Source of the DNA: a virus | Lineage: Duplodnaviria; Caudoviricetes | IMG/VR virus record: IMGVR_UViG_3300045609_000068 | Coordinates: 1-64,000 of that record | Length of the DNA stretch: 64,000 nucleotides | Strand: one strand, 5' to 3' | Part shown: in pieces, positions 29,805-37,599 of the stretch | How positions within the stretch are numbered: position 1 is the first letter of the stretch | Layout: every line of letters starts with the position of its first letter | Notes under the pieces: model-generated | Databases searched by the model: none | Told to the model about the DNA's origin: nothing | Seen by the model: the letters and a program-made list of their open reading frames with translations, nothing else | Made by a program: the position numbers and the translations under genes

Positions 29805-31148
29805 ATGAGGAAAAGAACTGAGAATAATTCCCGCGGAGACTTTTTCACCAGTGACGCGCTGGTGGCAGAATACCGCATCGCCAAAAAGACCATTCAGGAA
29901 TACGTGAACGAAATAGTCCGCGATTCGCATTACAGATCAATCGTCAACCAGATAGACGACGGGGCGGTACTGGACGACAGGTCGCGCCTGATAGACCTTT
30001 ACGAGTCGGGGATGATTCAGGACGCACATGTAAGCGCGGTACTGGAGACGCTGTTCTCGTACATGACAGGCGAAAGGTATATGCTGTGTACAATGAACGG
30101 GGAAGGAAAACTCGAAAAGGACAAAGAGCAGTCGGAGAAGATACAGGGGCAGCAGTTCGAGAAAATCATCAAGGAGATTCTTTACTCGCAGTTCTTCGGA
30201 TATTCCGTGATAGAGATTAACCCGAAGGTGGACGAACTGACCGGGCACCTTGCCGAAATCAATTCCATCGAGCGGAGGAATATACTCCCCGGTCAGAGAA
30301 GGGTGGTACAGCGTTCGCACCAATGGGACCCGGGGTGGGATCTGGACGACGAGCAGTACGTACACCGTTACGCCCTGATCGATTCGGGAGGGCTTGGAAT
30401 GTTCGCCCCGATGACACCGCTTGTACTCTCGAAAAAATACACCATAGCCAACTGGGTCAACTTCTCCCACACATACGGCCAGCCGATTATCCATGGCAAG
30501 ACTTCGAGCGAGAGCAAATCAGACAGGCAGTATCTTGCGACGCAGATAGCCAACGCAGCGCAGAAGAAGGTGCTTGTGACAGGAAAGGACGACGAGATAG
30601 ACGTAAAGACGTTCACGATGTCCAACTCGGAGAAGATTTACCAGTCGCTTATCGACTTCTCAAACGCGGAGATAAGCAACCTTGTGCTGGGTTCGGAAAG
30701 TATGGCCGGCGCGACGCAGAGCTATGTCGGTTCCACCAAGGCGCATGAGGATATATTCCGTGCAAGGATAAAGACTTACAGACGCATCGTCGAGAACGAG
30801 ATGAACGAGAAAATCATCCCGCGCCTTGTCTATTGGGGCTTTCTAAAGCAGGGAGTTGTGTTCAAATATTCCAACCAGATAGAGATGTCGATGGACAACA
30901 AGATAAAGCTGTACGACATGCTGACAAACAAATACAAGATAGATTCCGATGTCATCGAACGGGAGTTCGGAATCACGGTCGGGGATCAGCTCAATGCCAG
31001 TTATTACGGCACAGGTGGCATTTCGGAAGACGGAGGTACGGAACCCGAATACGGTAATAGGATGTCCGACGAGGAATACCTGAAAAGATACGGTCATCCG
31101 CGTCAGGAGGCAAAAGTAAATTTTCTCCTAGGGGATGCACGTCCCTGA
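29805..31148 (+). CDS. Portal protein (DUF935 / Mu gp29-like)
   Basis: K......W..F...YGQP..HGKT and N.EISNLVLG.......G pattern; first gene of head module. Confidence 0.88.
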   Translation: MRKRTENNSRGDFFTSDALVAEYRIAKKTIQEYVNEIVRDSHYRSIVNQIDDGAVLDDRSRLIDLYESGMIQDAHVSAVLETLFSYMTGERYMLCTMNGEGKLEKDKEQSEKIQGQQFEKIIKEILYSQFFGYSVIEINPKVDELTGHLAEINSIERRNILPGQRRVVQRSHQWDPGWDLDDEQYVHRYALIDSGGLGMFAPMTPLVLSKKYTIANWVNFSHTYGQPIIHGKTSSESKSDRQYLATQIANAAQKKVLVTGKDDEIDVKTFTMSNSEKIYQSLIDFSNAEISNLVLGSESMAGATQSYVGSTKAHEDIFRARIKTYRRIVENEMNEKIIPRLVYWGFLKQGVVFKYSNQIEMSMDNKIKLYDMLTNKYKIDSDVIEREFGITVGDQLNASYYGTGGISEDGGTEPEYGNRMSDEEYLKRYGHPRQEAKVNFLLGDARP

Positions 31149-31159
31149 AGTGTGTCCCC
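31118..31159 (+). other. Candidate -1 programmed ribosomal frameshift signal
   Basis: In-frame heptamer A AAT TTT (31118-31124), 6-nt spacer, 10-bp stem 31131-31140/31150-31159. Confidence 0.7.
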
Positions 31160-31294
31160 GACGTAAAAGCGGAACTTACCGACGAGGAAAAGGAAAAGGA
31201 GAAAAAGGAATATTCCGACCTTTATGCCCTTTTCGTTGAACTTCTGAAAAATCTGAGGAACGCGGACAGCAGGGAAGACGCGCTGGAGGCGATT

Positions 31295-32029
31295 ATGAGT
31301 CTTCGGGCAGACCTTGCCGTATCTCATGCCTTCAAAGGTTTCCACATGGACGAGGACGAGGCACTCGATCTGCTTAAAAGGGCGGACGACGAAATGCTCA
31401 CCAAGGACGAAAAGGACAAACGGGACAGACTTGTCGCGGCAGTGAGGAACCTCATCGACTTCGCCGTATGCGAGGAATACCAGCTGTACAAAAAGGTCAA
31501 GAAAAGATACGACGAGTTCGACGATGCGATTGACTATGACGAATACCCTGACGATTTTACGGACGACTGCGACGAATGGTGCAAGACGTATAACGACGCC
31601 TACGCCACGGTGGAAAACCACGACATAGAATACGCCATGGGCATCGCGCTCGCATGGATAGGGTATGGCGATAATGTATATCTCACCTACATGACGCAGA
31701 ACGACAACCGTGTAAGGCCGTGGCATTTCGCCTTGCAGGGGGAAACGTACACCAAGGACGATTTTCCCGCATGGATGATTCCGCCTATCGAGTGGGCCTG
31801 CCGATGCTTCCTAGTCCCGTCGTATGACGGTAACGCCAGCAAGGACATGAAACACGTGATGGCCAAGAAAGCGGCAAAGCCTAAGCAGCTTGACGGAATT
31901 TTCAGCGAGAGCGTGGCGAAATGCGGAAGAATTTTCTCCGCGTCGCATCCGTACTTCAAAGTTGACAAGGAAGACAAATCCAGACTGGGCGAAATTGCAG
32001 ACAAACTGAAAGGGAAATATTATGTATAA
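31295..32029 (+). CDS. Mu gpF / SPP1 gp7-like minor head protein (frame open back to 31061 without an ATG)
   Basis: Y.TQND.RVRPWH..L.G......PP..W.CRC motif. Confidence 0.88.
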   Translation: MSLRADLAVSHAFKGFHMDEDEALDLLKRADDEMLTKDEKDKRDRLVAAVRNLIDFAVCEEYQLYKKVKKRYDEFDDAIDYDEYPDDFTDDCDEWCKTYNDAYATVENHDIEYAMGIALAWIGYGDNVYLTYMTQNDNRVRPWHFALQGETYTKDDFPAWMIPPIEWACRCFLVPSYDGNASKDMKHVMAKKAAKPKQLDGIFSESVAKCGRIFSASHPYFKVDKEDKSRLGEIADKLKGKYYV

Positions 32030-32750
32030 TGACGCACCGAAATGGTTCAGAGGGTACGAGAGGTACTTTTCGAGAGGGCTGTACCCAAGTTTAAAGGCGA
32101 AAGGAACGGAAGATGGAGTTACCAAGTATTACAGAACCGCTCACGAAAGAAGAATATTCACTCCGATGAAGTATGATTCACGTCAGATGCGAGGAAGGTT
32201 CAGAAGTAATTCGACCGTTCTGACCCACACGCAATGGATGAATCAGATAAAGTTGCTCCCTGAAAAGATTACATCAAGAGCCATGAGTTTCGTTTCCGTC
32301 ATGAGTTACCGCGCACAGAAGATATTCCAGACTTCTTTCAGCCAGCAACGGTTTTACAGTTCCGACGGAGGTATATGGCAGCGTTTAAGTCCCGTAACAA
32401 TCAAGAAAAGGATGAAGAACGGGACATGGCCGGGCAGCATACTTCACGAAACTGGCGATCTGCTCAGGTCCATAACCGCTAGGGAGGCGGATCGGGAGGG
32501 CTATTATATCCATGCAAGAGTGTTTACGGACCCTAAAGCGTTCAGGTCACACAAGGACAACCGAGGGTTTTTCTGCTATGCAGGACTCCATAACAACCCT
32601 TCCGAAACCGATACGTACGGAAACAGCCGAACACACATCGTGCAAAGGCAGTTCATGGGCCATTCCACCTATTACACGGAGTTCGAGAACAAGATAATCG
32701 ACAAATATCTCTTTTACGACATCTTCCCGAAGATGATGTACAAAAACTAA
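32022..32750 (+). CDS. Phage virion morphogenesis (Mu gpG-like) protein
   Basis: W..LSP.T.K.......IL..TG.L..SI...YA..HN....RQFMG.S. Confidence 0.8.
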   Translation: MYNDAPKWFRGYERYFSRGLYPSLKAKGTEDGVTKYYRTAHERRIFTPMKYDSRQMRGRFRSNSTVLTHTQWMNQIKLLPEKITSRAMSFVSVMSYRAQKIFQTSFSQQRFYSSDGGIWQRLSPVTIKKRMKNGTWPGSILHETGDLLRSITAREADREGYYIHARVFTDPKAFRSHKDNRGFFCYAGLHNNPSETDTYGNSRTHIVQRQFMGHSTYYTEFENKIIDKYLFYDIFPKMMYKN

Positions 32751-32762
32751 CATTATTCGGAT

Positions 32763-33536
32763 ATGATTATAGATAAGAAAACAGGTTCCGTGATAAGCGG
32801 AAATACAAAAAGTACCTCTGCGAAAAGTACAGATACATCAACGACGGGCACGACAGTTCCCGTACAGGAATCCGAACCAAGCAGCGGAATCATAGAAGTC
32901 ACGAAAGCTATTCAGGCGATATTGAGGGGTGTAAGATGGGAGTACGGAAATTCGGAAAGCCCCCTCATCTTCAAAACCGTGCAATGGAACGACGGCCAGT
33001 TCGAACGTCTCATCCGAAAGGGAGGGAACACCGAGTTCGCCCTCGGACTTCCCGCAGCGTTCGTGCATTTCGTCGATACGTCATACCTTGTGTCGCAGCA
33101 GAGGATAGGGGAGGGCAGGGCGAAGCTCCGCATCCAGTTTGTCCTTAACCGCCTTAACAGCCATGATGCCGACCACGAGTTGGACCCGCTATATGTCACG
33201 CAGCGCATCGATCAGGAGATAGTCCTTCACAAAAGCGAATACGACTGCCTTTCGGAACGCTGCCAGATAGTATATTGGGATTTCCCCGAAAGCTGGGACA
33301 ACGGTATGCAGATGGGATGGCTCACATACGAGATATGGTTCAAGGAGACGAGTATATGGATAACGAGATTGAAGAAATACACCCATATAGTGATGCCTCC
33401 GTTCACCAACCACTCCGACCAGACTGCGGAAGCCAACGAGCATAACCACACCGATGCGGACCATCCACGGACTTACGACGAAGCCACGTCGTTCAATATT
33501 CCGGGAGAAACGGACGATACGGAAAGCGGAAATTGA
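32763..33536 (+). CDS. Putative neck/tail-terminator protein (Mu gp37-like)
   Basis: V..WN.Q and PAAFV.F pattern; position in module. Confidence 0.55.
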   Translation: MIIDKKTGSVISGNTKSTSAKSTDTSTTGTTVPVQESEPSSGIIEVTKAIQAILRGVRWEYGNSESPLIFKTVQWNDGQFERLIRKGGNTEFALGLPAAFVHFVDTSYLVSQQRIGEGRAKLRIQFVLNRLNSHDADHELDPLYVTQRIDQEIVLHKSEYDCLSERCQIVYWDFPESWDNGMQMGWLTYEIWFKETSIWITRLKKYTHIVMPPFTNHSDQTAEANEHNHTDADHPRTYDEATSFNIPGETDDTESGN

Positions 33537-33606
33537 CACAACAGGTAAATCGTACGAATGTAACCTTTTGAATGTCAGACAACTATATATAAGAAAAACA
33601 CAGTTT

Positions 33607-34851
33607 ATGGCAGAACAAAAGGAATTGAAATATGTGAAAGGCGAATACCGCAAGGGTTCGCCCGCAGACATGTACTTTTATGACGATGTGGACGACTGGA
33701 GCGTCAAGGATTTCTTATCGGAGTTCCAGTATCTGACCAATTATGTCGCCCCTTCCGTAATCAGGGTCCATATCATTTCATGCGGCGGCGTATGCGTGGA
33801 GGGCATAAAGGTATTCTCCATGATTCTCGGTTCGCAGATACCCGTAGAGACCATCAACGACGGCTTCGCGGCTTCCATGGCATCCGCTATCTGGGCGGCT
33901 GGAAGTGTACGCTATATGCGCGATTATGCAATCCTGATGATACACAACCCTTGGACGGACGAAGAGAACCCTTCCGCAGACACAGCCAAGATGACTGATT
34001 CGTTCAGGAACCAGCTATCTTTGATTTACAAGGAGCGGTTCGGGCTTGACGACAAGTCGGTCAAGGAAATCATGGACGGCAAGGACGGCGTGGACGGGAC
34101 ATGGTATACCGCCGAAGAATCCGTTACGGCTGGTTTCCTCGATGCAGCCAATGTCATCAAAACTTCGGGAGACGTATCGGAAAAGGTCGCTGCGTCGTTG
34201 AAGGGAATCAAGACGATGTACGCCAAAACCGACAAGAAGAACACAGAGATTGTGACAAATCTAATCAATAATATTAATCAAAAGAAAAGCGAAATGACAG
34301 AAAACGAGTTCAAAATGGTCGCCGCCCAACTGGGGTTCGACGATCAGAAATCGACAGGTGCCAATGTCACTGCAAGAATCAACGAGCTTCTCGACAAGGA
34401 GAAGAAGTTTGAGCAGATCAGCAATGACTTGAAGGGCGCTCAGGAACAGCTGAGCAAGGTAAGCACCGAATTGGAAGGTAGCAAGGCGTCAGTCACCAAT
34501 CTGACGAAAAGCCTTGATGAAGCGAAGGCTAGCCTGAAAACATATCAGGAGACCGAAAAGGAAAACATGCGCAAGCGCAATGAGGAGCTTGTGGATGCAG
34601 CCATTTCGACAAGCCGTATCGGGAAAGAATCACGCGAAACATGGTTGAAGATGGCAGAGGACAACTTCGACTTGGTTAAGCAGACTCTCGCAAGCATCCC
34701 AGCCGCAAAACAGTTGTCGGCAGAGATCGCCAAAGACCCCGAAAATCTGAAGGATGCCGAAAAGGGCAGACAAAGCGAGGAGGAAAAGGTTAAAGCAAAG
34801 GTAAAGGCAATTGTCGGTGACGACTTCAAACCGCTCACCCCTGAGTTCTAA
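33607..34851 (+). CDS. ClpP-like (S14) prohead protease with C-terminal scaffold region
   Basis: S.GG.C.EG, AASMAS (Ser), MIHNPW (His), GTW.TAEE, then coiled coil; start reset to MAEQK. Confidence 0.9.
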   Translation: MAEQKELKYVKGEYRKGSPADMYFYDDVDDWSVKDFLSEFQYLTNYVAPSVIRVHIISCGGVCVEGIKVFSMILGSQIPVETINDGFAASMASAIWAAGSVRYMRDYAILMIHNPWTDEENPSADTAKMTDSFRNQLSLIYKERFGLDDKSVKEIMDGKDGVDGTWYTAEESVTAGFLDAANVIKTSGDVSEKVAASLKGIKTMYAKTDKKNTEIVTNLINNINQKKSEMTENEFKMVAAQLGFDDQKSTGANVTARINELLDKEKKFEQISNDLKGAQEQLSKVSTELEGSKASVTNLTKSLDEAKASLKTYQETEKENMRKRNEELVDAAISTSRIGKESRETWLKMAEDNFDLVKQTLASIPAAKQLSAEIAKDPENLKDAEKGRQSEEEKVKAKVKAIVGDDFKPLTPEF

Positions 34852-34877: not shown

Positions 34878-35924
34878 ATGGCAACATTCAATTTCAATCA
34901 AGGAGCACAGGACTATACGGGTGAAGTCCTGAATGATGTCCTCACTTACGACATCAGGGAAAACGAGACCTACAAACAGGGCCTTATCCATATACACCCC
35001 GGTATTCAGAAGCGTTTCACCATCCCTACCATGCAGGTAAGCGGTATCATTCAGGATCACAAGGAAACTCCTGATACGAGCAAGGGAGATGTCAAGTTCA
35101 CACACCGTTATCTGGAGCCTTCCGACTTCATGATTTTCGTTCAGTTCAACCCACGAAACTTCGAGCTGTATTACAAGGAGTTCCAGCCTGTCAACGAGTT
35201 GATTATGCGCGAGCTTAACCCGAGCATTCAGATGAAGATGATACGCGCCATCCTCCAGCTGAAGGGTTCATATATCGACGATTCAATCTGGCAGGGCGCA
35301 AAGACTGCCACCGCAGCAAAAATCATGGACGCGGCAGGTGCGGCACAGACCACCATCGGCGGTTCCGACGACGCAGGTGACATGAAGTATTTCGACGGTG
35401 CAATCGCACGTATGCTTGCCAACGCAGCAGCAGCCGACACAACCGAAGACGCTCTCGGAGGTAAGATTACCACCGCAGGAACTGGCACGTTCGCTAACGG
35501 TGAAGCAGTACAGACCGAAATGTACAACATGTGGCAAAAATGCCCGTCCACAACCCGCCGCAAACCGGGTCTGAAATGGCTTGTAGATGATGAGACTTGG
35601 GACAAGTACGACCAGTATCTGTCAAGCCAGGTATTCAAATACGTGGACAACCGCAGCGAGAACGAACTGAGATTCAAAGGCAAACCAATCATCGCCCTTT
35701 CTTCTCTCCCGAAGGACACTATCATCCTCGGTAACTTCACCAGCGGGCTGGATTCCAACCTTTGGATGGGTGTTGACTACGCCAACGACGAGAACGTCCT
35801 CCAAATCGAAAAGTGGCGTCCAGAGTCCGAGCTTTGGTTCCTCAAGATGTTGCTCAAGATGGATGTCAACATCGTGAAACCAAAGGAGATTATCGCCCAC
35901 ATTCCATTCTCTTGGAAGGCTTAA
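34878..35924 (+). CDS. Major capsid protein
   Basis: 348 aa directly after the protease, followed by a hairpin; size and context fit. Confidence 0.8.
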   Translation: MATFNFNQGAQDYTGEVLNDVLTYDIRENETYKQGLIHIHPGIQKRFTIPTMQVSGIIQDHKETPDTSKGDVKFTHRYLEPSDFMIFVQFNPRNFELYYKEFQPVNELIMRELNPSIQMKMIRAILQLKGSYIDDSIWQGAKTATAAKIMDAAGAAQTTIGGSDDAGDMKYFDGAIARMLANAAAADTTEDALGGKITTAGTGTFANGEAVQTEMYNMWQKCPSTTRRKPGLKWLVDDETWDKYDQYLSSQVFKYVDNRSENELRFKGKPIIALSSLPKDTIILGNFTSGLDSNLWMGVDYANDENVLQIEKWRPESELWFLKMLLKMDVNIVKPKEIIAHIPFSWKA

Positions 35925-36249: not shown

Positions 36250-37599
36250 ATGCCGACAAACACAAAATTAGGTGGTGTATTCACCACCGATCTTGACAAT
36301 AACATTGGTGGAACTGTGAACGTCTCTACTGAAAACGTATGCGGAATCATCTTCGACACCAAGATTGTGGGCGGTTTGGCAACAGCACTGGGCACTGGTA
36401 CCACTGCTGCTACGAAATTCGCCAATGGAGCCGTAGTCGAGCTTAATACCTCCAAGGACGTTGAATCCGCAGGTATAGACGCCACGGTCATGAGCGGTCT
36501 CCCGTTGCACCATCTGAGTAATTTCTTTACTCTTGCAGGGGAAAACCAACGTATATTCGTCTCTTTCATGGACTCGACTACCGACACGAACTTCGAGGCC
36601 GTCGAGAAGATGGTATTGGCTGCAAACGGTATCATATACCAGATTGGTGTATGGACGGGTGAAGCTTTATGCAAGAAGACCGATTCCACTGTCACTATCG
36701 TTGACGGAGGCATCCTTTCCAAACTTCAGGCACAGGCCGAAGTAGTGGGAGGAAAAATCGGGCACGTCAACTACGACGGGAACGCGCCTATAAACATTCT
36801 GGTGAATGCCCCTATCGTTACGGATGCAACGTTCGATGTGGCTTCACTCCCTGACATGTCATCGCTGAACCTGCCAAAGGTTTCCGTGATTCTCGGACAG
36901 CCGGCAACAGATGCGGTACATACGATACAGGCCGCTCTTGGCGGTATGTGTCCAGTGGGCAATGTCGGTGCAGCCCTTGCCTGCCTTGCAGTGGCACCTG
37001 CCGACATAAGCATCGGATGGGTCAAAGAGTTCAATCTGTCCAGCGTTATGACCAATGCGGAACTTGGATTCGGTAACTTGGACATAGATACCACATCGAA
37101 GGCATTCAAGGCTGATGCGGCATTTACGAACATCAAGACTCTCGGATATAGCGCACGCAACACCATCCATAGCAAGGGATATATTTTCCTTACGAATTTG
37201 GACGGAATCGAAAACGGTGTGTTCTTCTCCAGCGACCAGACGCTTAGCACTGGTGACTACAGGACTCTGATGCGTTGCCGTGTTATGCACAAGAGCCGCA
37301 GGTCTGTCAGAAAAGCCCTTCTTCCTTTCGTGAACCAGAGCGTGGAAGTTGATTCGACAACGGGCCAGCTTTCTTCATCCATGATTACGACATACCAGAA
37401 TGCAGTCTTGGCGGCACTTGACGACAATATGGTTGAACCTGGGACATCAGTTCCGCAGATTAGCGGACGTACATGCACTATCTCGTCCACACAGGATATC
37501 CTGACGAATGACGAATTGCAGATATCTTATAGCCTTGTACCAGTAGGATGCACTTCGGTCATCATGGTGACGGAGGGGTTTGTTACTTCTGTATCTTAA
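36250..37599 (+). CDS. Tail sheath protein 1 (DUF2586-like)
   Basis: QIGVWT, PKVSVILGQ, GDY..L...RVMHK.RR.VR.ALLP.VN; directly upstream of tube gene. Confidence 0.85.
   Translation: MPTNTKLGGVFTTDLDNNIGGTVNVSTENVCGIIFDTKIVGGLATALGTGTTAATKFANGAVVELNTSKDVESAGIDATVMSGLPLHHLSNFFTLAGENQRIFVSFMDSTTDTNFEAVEKMVLAANGIIYQIGVWTGEALCKKTDSTVTIVDGGILSKLQAQAEVVGGKIGHVNYDGNAPINILVNAPIVTDATFDVASLPDMSSLNLPKVSVILGQPATDAVHTIQAALGGMCPVGNVGAALACLAVAPADISIGWVKEFNLSSVMTNAELGFGNLDIDTTSKAFKADAAFTNIKTLGYSARNTIHSKGYIFLTNLDGIENGVFFSSDQTLSTGDYRTLMRCRVMHKSRRSVRKALLPFVNQSVEVDSTTGQLSSSMITTYQNAVLAALDDNMVEPGTSVPQISGRTCTISSTQDILTNDELQISYSLVPVGCTSVIMVTEGFVTSVS

Follow-up and report, generated by a model that had tools for sequence, protein, structure and literature searches.

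How a phage minor head protein is made when the first conserved part of its reading frame holds no start codon is the question raised by a locus in the stretch of gut-phage DNA analysed here (Duplodnaviria; Caudoviricetes), which comprises positions 1 to 64,000 of the IMG/VR record IMGVR_UViG_3300045609_000068 and is called the window at its full length of 64,000 nucleotides (nt). The genes concerned encode a portal protein and, directly behind it, a MuF-type (gpF, SPP1 gp7-type) protein whose frame lies at −1 relative to the portal frame. With a probability of about 0.88, the end of the portal gene harbours a programmed −1 ribosomal frameshift site by which the portal protein would be joined to MuF, as judged from comparative sequence analysis of this gene junction.

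The portal open reading frame (ORF) extends from 29805 to 31148 on the plus strand, encodes 447 amino acids (aa; 51.2 kDa) and ends with the zero-frame TGA at 31146–31148. Its product matches the Portal_Mu family PF06074 (formerly DUF935) over nearly the full length of the profile (positions 2–336 of 336; E value 5.9e-51; 174.2 bits vs. a curated cut-off of 23.9) and PHROG 113 (portal). The −1 frame is open from 31061, with TAA and TAG just upstream of this position, to 32029, and the earliest ATG, GTG or TTG within it is the ATG at 31295–31297. The match of its product to Phage_Mu_F (PF04233) reaches 31.2 bits at a cut-off of 29.6 and covers only profile positions 63–111 of 112; the assignment as MuF is also backed by PHROGs 324, 220 and 4529 (head morphogenesis or minor head protein), by PF04233 matches on nearly all homologues and by the location adjoining the portal gene.

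Shortly before the portal stop, the portal frame reads gtA AAT TTT and thereby contains the slippery heptamer A_AAT_TTT (31118–31124, plus strand), an X_XXY_YYZ motif in phase. It is followed by a 6-nt spacer (CTCCTA, 31125–31130) and by a predicted stimulatory hairpin (31131–31159) with a stem of 10 base pairs (bp) including two G-U pairs (arms 31131–31140 and 31150–31159) and a 9-nt loop (31141–31149) in which the portal TGA is located. The minimum free energy of the hairpin is −18.9 kcal/mol (z = −2.8 vs. dinucleotide shuffles). As read after a slip, the MuF frame comprises 301 codons plus stop (31124–32029), and the computed slip product has 440 + 301 = 741 aa and 85.4 kDa with the junction ..EAK VNFSPR GC... 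The initial annotation had proposed the frameshift from such features, namely the perfect in-phase heptamer, the spacer and stem with two G-U pairs and a 9-nt loop, a −1 frame identical to the gpF frame and without ATG from 31061 to 31295, and a product of 440 + 301 aa and about 85 kDa. All these details were found to be correct on rechecking: refolding returned the same hairpin coordinates, recalculation the same product, and the −1 frame lacks GTG and TTG codons before 31295 as well.

The nine-base motif AAATTTTCT, i.e. the heptamer plus the next CT, occurs four times in the window at an expectation of 1.75, and the frameshift context was sought and not found at the three other copies in the window. 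Because the motif by itself is not unusual there, the case rests on the comparison with relatives. Single-sequence scans of genome and viral contigs with the portal protein found no relatives, and an alignment of MuF homologues was needed as query. With this query, 58 IMG/VR contigs and seven Bacteroidales genomes or metagenome-assembled genomes (MAGs) were retrieved; two metagenome contigs (carrying the MuF protein P0004) and two GenBank phages bring the number of related loci to 69. The seven genome loci derive from two cultured Bacteroidales strains, Prevotella sp. MGM2 and Lepagella muris NM04_E33, and from five MAGs labelled Bacteroides, Porphyromonadaceae, Sangeribacter, Eubacteriales and Lachnospiraceae. 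The loci span 35–84% MuF identity; when lineages are separated by less than 60% identity across the first 110 residues of MuF, there are at least 12 of them.

A_AAT_TTT is present in phase in all 69 loci, 10–28 nt ahead of the portal stop, and the sole invariant columns across 42 unique junctions are the nine bases AAATTTTCT. Elsewhere in the same portal ORFs, AAT accounts for 52% of the Asn codons, TTT for 51% of the Phe codons, and the A-ending Val or Ile codons (GTA or ATA) for about 20%. Third codon positions nearby differ in 63–66% of the sequence pairs, while the synonymous sites of Asn, Phe and the preceding codon are invariant; the zero frame is subject to extra synonymous-site conservation across the signal. 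MuF is found in the −1 frame in each of the 55 IMG/VR loci with a callable portal ORF, overlapping the portal end by 28–166 nt, and all loci checked have this frame open from the heptamer onward. The first canonical MuF start in the IMG/VR loci is mostly located 20–350 nt past the portal stop. Relatives without the signal and with gpF starting from an ATG near the portal stop, which the initial annotation had named as the finding that would speak against it, were thus the opposite of what was observed.

A hairpin behind the heptamer is retained in all 69 loci. It was surveyed in the 42 unique junctions, which also formed the covariation alignment. It was found in every one of them as a helix of about 11 bp beginning 5–6 nt past the heptamer; distances below 5 nt are reported in some relatives where folding adds extra outer pairs. 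The loop usually comprises 6–8 nt and contains the portal stop in nearly all junctions. The folds have energies of −12 to −28 kcal/mol and stems whose sequence varies by lineage. In the alignment, 93% of 440 cells are standard pairs compared to 37–55% in controls with the 3′ arm slid by 1–3 columns, and this figure is conservative because the window helix is offset by one column. Nine of the 11 pairs are altered on both sides in a compensatory manner, double changes occur in 86 cells, and none of 500 shuffles matched the observed pairing or covariation score. The covariation of the stem in relatives, suggested in the initial annotation as a check, is therefore borne out. A search of Rfam at the site revealed no known RNA family, the sole row being a chance match to a small nucleolar RNA (E value 0.73).

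Some lineages show further complementarity around this hairpin. At L001, L002, L005–L007, L057 and L058, the loop sequence AAGGC is complementary to GCCUU about 13 nt past the stem, and at L041–L049 CAGGG with CCCUG takes the place of this pair, so that both sides change together between lineages. The summed score of such loop-to-downstream pairing was 464 vs. 362 ± 11 for shuffles; no such pairing was detected in the window (31141–31190) or in its closest relative L066. These sequences suggest an H-type pseudoknot in some lineages only, which is no part of the main claim. Furthermore, at L009, L020–L040, L053 and L054 the sequence UGCC just 5′ of an ATG encoding M(S/T) complements the loop sequence GGCG and is located about 20–23 nt past the stem. 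This pairing is significant in no single sequence; it might link folding of the hairpin with the use of an own start of MuF.

A further question is whether the part of the MuF frame between the hairpin and the first ATG is protein-coding. This tract without start codon (31160–31294, plus strand) encodes helix 1 and the beginning of helix 2 of the predicted structure, and the ATG at 31295 corresponds to residue 58 of the post-slip part. Over 110 codons from the heptamer onward, no stop was found in the −1 frame in 45 aligned sequences. Pairwise divergence at codon positions 1/2/3 in this 45-sequence alignment was 0.46/0.30/0.63 from the hairpin to the column of ATG 31295, which is practically the pattern of the undisputed coding region downstream (0.42/0.24/0.66); the start-less tract evolves as coding sequence. 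Within the hairpin itself, i.e. the first 14 post-slip codons, the values are flat (0.31/0.30/0.39), as expected for a sequence under the combined constraint of RNA structure and two reading frames. For the 301 residues of the post-slip part, an AlphaFold2 model reached a mean predicted local distance difference test score (pLDDT) of 84.9 and a predicted template modelling score of 0.84. It contains helices at residues 20–42 and 47–72 with pLDDT values of 92–98, while residues 1–11 are predicted to be disordered. As residue 58 is located inside the confident helix 47–72, a product starting at ATG 31295 would miss helix 1 and part of helix 2. The impression noted in the initial annotation, that the codons between portal stop and ATG 31295 look like real helical protein, is in agreement with both the coding pattern and the confident helices. 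A Foldseek comparison of the MuF model with the PDB returned nothing with an E value below 0.2, so that no solved homologue informs the fold.

The homologues lead to the same part of the frame. A search with the entire open −1 frame identified 296 homologues, most of which have 285–310 aa and cover 88–90% of the query and therefore reach well upstream of ATG 31295. Many of the aligned homologues begin with M(S/T)D(D/E)EK, the Met of which aligns with Leu (CTT) in the window. Others have longer N-termini and align to the −1 frame of the window back to the heptamer, e.g. P0038, which begins with MFKSKFSGRG. The Met column of M(S/T)DDEK contains Met in roughly half of the lineages; elsewhere it is Leu (window and the L002, L016, L027 and L041 groups), Phe (L066) or Ile (L057). 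A start codon is absent from this column in about half of the lineages, among them the window and L066, and the Met equivalent to ATG 31295 is not conserved in the alignment. The gene calls for MuF in the window phage (P0003, 227 aa) and in the nearest relative (P0004, 244 aa, 83% identity) begin at internal ATGs; in the window, starts at 31295 and 31346 give 244 and 227 aa, respectively, and omit 57 to 74 conserved codons.

Among the relatives is BS-TP1, a cultured temperate Bacteroides phage (PQ571274; L068:3693–3840), which carries the in-phase A_AAT_TTT together with a 10-bp hairpin. A TAA directly in front of the heptamer makes this site the exact point at which the −1 frame of BS-TP1 opens. 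The BS-TP1 paper makes no mention of a frameshift (PMC12694917). MuF of this phage (gp44) is annotated from an ATG 113 nt past the portal stop, so that the record probably lacks the N-terminal part of gp44. The Flavobacterium phages lotta8-2 and FPSV-S1, which are more distantly related, served as negative controls: in both, MuF is read in the +1 frame from an ATG of its own 4 nt past the portal stop, and no frameshift signal was found at their portal-MuF junctions. As these two phages differ, the arrangement is a trait of a Bacteroidales phage clade and not of the gene pair. A separate observation was made in the Winogradskyella phage Peternella_1 (MT732475; L072:3530–3670), whose portal gene ends in runs of ten and seven A residues. 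There, the MuF frame is again −1 and opens at an A run, with an annotated GTG start 98 nt downstream; a different slippage device, transcriptional or ribosomal, may operate at the same gene junction.

The expected product architecture also exists in nature without recoding. A search for longer relatives yielded the in-frame Portal_Mu-MuF proteins P0123–P0125 with 729–763 aa and 44–46% identity to the window MuF; their linkers are different, and neither a VNF site nor the heptamer was found in them. For P0123, a gene map gave the same gene order as in the window including the neighbouring head genes. In an exhaustive profile search with 2,608 relatives, at least 17 of the best 150 have 660–880 aa with the MuF part at residues 470–720, and all ten long distant relatives scanned consist of Portal_Mu plus Phage_Mu_F. 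Portal-MuF gene fusions have been published for Microbacterium phages of subclusters EA3, EA5 and EA8 and cluster EB (PMC7302621), and portal/MuF/effector fusions among polyvalent proteins were described by Iyer et al. 2017 (PMC5512222). Because such natural in-frame fusions exist, a covalent portal-MuF product is, by analogy, viable. Some distant in-frame fusions bear additional C-terminal domains, namely PBECR2 in P0198, P0231 and P0233 and CdiA_C in P0228; as these are nuclease- or toxin-type domains, a portal chain can carry a MuF-linked effector. The window MuF has no C-terminal domain of this kind.

Taken together, the conservation of the signal, the covariation of the hairpin, the coding character of the start-less tract and the natural fusions support the reading of the initial annotation, i.e. 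a −1 frameshift fusing portal and gpF. According to this reading, most ribosomes would pass the heptamer, unwind the 5′ arm of the hairpin and terminate at TGA 31146, yielding the 447-aa portal protein. A minority would pause while AAU occupies the P site and UUU the A site, since the hairpin 6 nt downstream is proposed to sit at the mRNA entrance. The tRNA-Asn and tRNA-Phe would then re-pair one base back, from AAU UUU to AAA UUU, and reading would continue in the MuF frame. The expected outcome is a minor 741-aa portal-MuF chain with the junction ..KVNF|SPRG.. beside the major portal protein. The C-terminus of portal proteins (crown) faces the capsid interior in solved structures, e.g. of SPP1 gp6 and of P22. 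MuF would therefore be tethered inside the procapsid, and this tether would be flexible, with post-slip residues 1–11 predicted to be disordered. The proposal implies that the slip occurs at a useful rate, that fusion subunits would co-assemble with plain portal subunits, and that presumably only few subunits per ring carry gpF, with slip efficiency setting the MuF copy number. The Clp-type prohead protease encoded at 33454–34851 may later release MuF.

A more far-reaching version of this proposal is put forward with only slightly more confidence than doubt. It states that MuF lacks an own initiation codon in the window phage and in roughly half of the related lineages, so that full-length MuF would exist there only as a C-terminal extension of the portal protein. 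The number of MuF-bearing subunits among the twelve of the portal would then be set by frameshift efficiency, and the portal ring would place MuF in the procapsid, possibly followed by protease release. In such phages recoding, and not protein-protein affinity, would count and position a low-copy internal head protein.

The most serious competitor of the frameshift is an independent start of MuF at CTG 31145, by re-initiation or at ATG 31295, without meaningful fusion and with heptamer and hairpin serving for coupling, attenuation or mRNA stability. The CTG is located in the MuF frame and overlaps the portal stop as CTGA in the window and in L066; at the equivalent position most lineages have GTA or a similar codon. 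An ATG at the M(S/T)DDEK column exists in many lineages and a nearby TTG in some, yet no start-like codon is conserved at one position across lineages, and ATG 31295 lies inside a confident helix at a column where Met is not conserved. A coupling hairpin would require neither an invariant in-phase X_XXY_YYZ motif with fixed synonymous sites nor a constant −1 frame. Also, it would not need this frame to be open back to the heptamer, whereas the BS-TP1 frame opens exactly there. We therefore regard an independent start without fusion as improbable. Still less credit is given to slippage of RNA polymerase on the A3T4 run, by which some mRNAs would be one base short and the fusion in frame. The site is indeed a short homopolymer pair, and the A10 and A7 runs at the same junction of the distant relative Peternella_1 could slip in transcription. 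However, productive transcriptional slippage needs runs of about 7–9 or more identical bases and those in the window have only 3 and 4 bases, while a covarying RNA hairpin at a distance of 5–6 nt is a hallmark of ribosomal −1 frameshifting. The in-frame fusions in relatives could finally be taken to mean that a former single portal-MuF gene was split by a frameshift mutation or by a sequencing or assembly indel. This is hardly credible: the two-frame arrangement and the heptamer recur in 69 loci that were assembled independently and stem from numerous samples, from isolates and from a cultured phage, and the in-frame fusions have a different linker without the VNF site.

Several points weigh against the programmed frameshift itself or limit its reach. 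Re-pairing of tRNA-Asn on AAA in the P site carries a wobble mismatch. Over the first 14 post-slip codons, the protein could look more conserved than it is, since the helix constrains the sequence. In the many lineages with an ATG at the M(S/T)DDEK column, free MuF may be made from this codon as well, and in the window a shortened 244-aa product from ATG 31295 is possible.

The surrounding genes form a Mu-like head module on the plus strand. The MuF gene ending at 32029 is followed by genes for a protein with a weak Phage_tail_S/gpG-like match (32022–32750), the prohead protease mentioned above, a probable major head protein (34878–35924) and a tail sheath protein (36250–37599). The gpG-like gene begins 8 nt ahead of the MuF stop, an ordinary overlap of the translational-coupling type.

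If the frameshift takes place as proposed, it would account for the delivery of a low-copy internal head protein to the portal vertex in a defined number. In the virion genes of tailed phages, conserved programmed frameshifts are known mainly from the tail assembly chaperones and, in scattered cases, from capsid and tail-tube genes; a conserved frameshift from portal to MuF would extend this list by another class. The mechanism is familiar and the product architecture already known; the difference from known systems lies in the genes joined or in the way of joining them. In the full-text literature searched, which lacks most subscription journals, no description of a portal-to-MuF frameshift was found, and portal-MuF gene fusions were. 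There are also consequences for annotation: MuF is currently called in shortened form in the window phage and its nearest relative (227 or 244 aa) and from a downstream ATG in BS-TP1, and in a widespread group of gut phages of Bacteroidales the annotations lack the predicted portal-MuF transframe products. The claim is directly testable, as the signal is carried by the cultured phage BS-TP1 (host Bacteroides salyersiae BG8) and by prophages of two cultured strains, Lepagella muris NM04_E33 and Prevotella sp. MGM2.

Among known systems, the closest parallel is the gpG/gpGT −1 frameshift in the tail assembly chaperones of lambda and most long-tailed phages (Levin et al. 1993; Xu, Hendrix and Duda 2004; both as cited in PMC7302621 and PMC8008677). 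The two cases have in common that a conserved −1 slip, close to the 3′ end of an upstream gene for virion assembly, gives or would give a major short protein and a minor one extended at the C-terminus, in a ratio fixed by slip efficiency, and that the downstream ORF is often startless. They differ in the gene pair, which here comprises portal and MuF head protein, in the heptamer (A_AAU_UUU instead of G_GGA_AAG) and in the covarying hairpin, which here contains the zero-frame stop. Moreover, the long product would here be a structural part of the portal vertex, whereas the chaperone is left out of the virion. With respect to the signal, E. coli dnaX and IS911/IS3 orfA-orfB are similar, as they also have an X_XXY_YYZ heptamer that is followed, after a spacer of 5–7 nt, by a stable stem-loop. 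The structure of IS3-type elements likewise has the zero-frame stop inside it or close by, and their functional long form is the fusion. The host group Bacteroidales, the heptamer and the function of the genes, which here encode virion proteins, set the window locus apart from both. An upstream stimulator of the Shine-Dalgarno type was not noticed at the window locus, where no search aimed at it was made.

With respect to the product, the single-ORF portal-MuF fusions have the same architecture with Portal_Mu at the N-terminus and Phage_Mu_F at the C-terminus. In those proteins, which lack the heptamer and have other linkers, every portal chain bears MuF, whereas in the window two products are expected per mRNA with most chains ending at the portal stop. 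The same two protein families are also represented by SPP1 gp6 (portal) and gp7 (MuF family), the latter being a low-copy internal head protein held at the portal. MuF/gp7 proteins have been described as head components of portal-terminase phages (PMC5512222). In SPP1, gp6 and gp7 are separate, non-covalently bound polypeptides; in the phages analysed here, recoding is predicted to link portal and MuF by a peptide bond.

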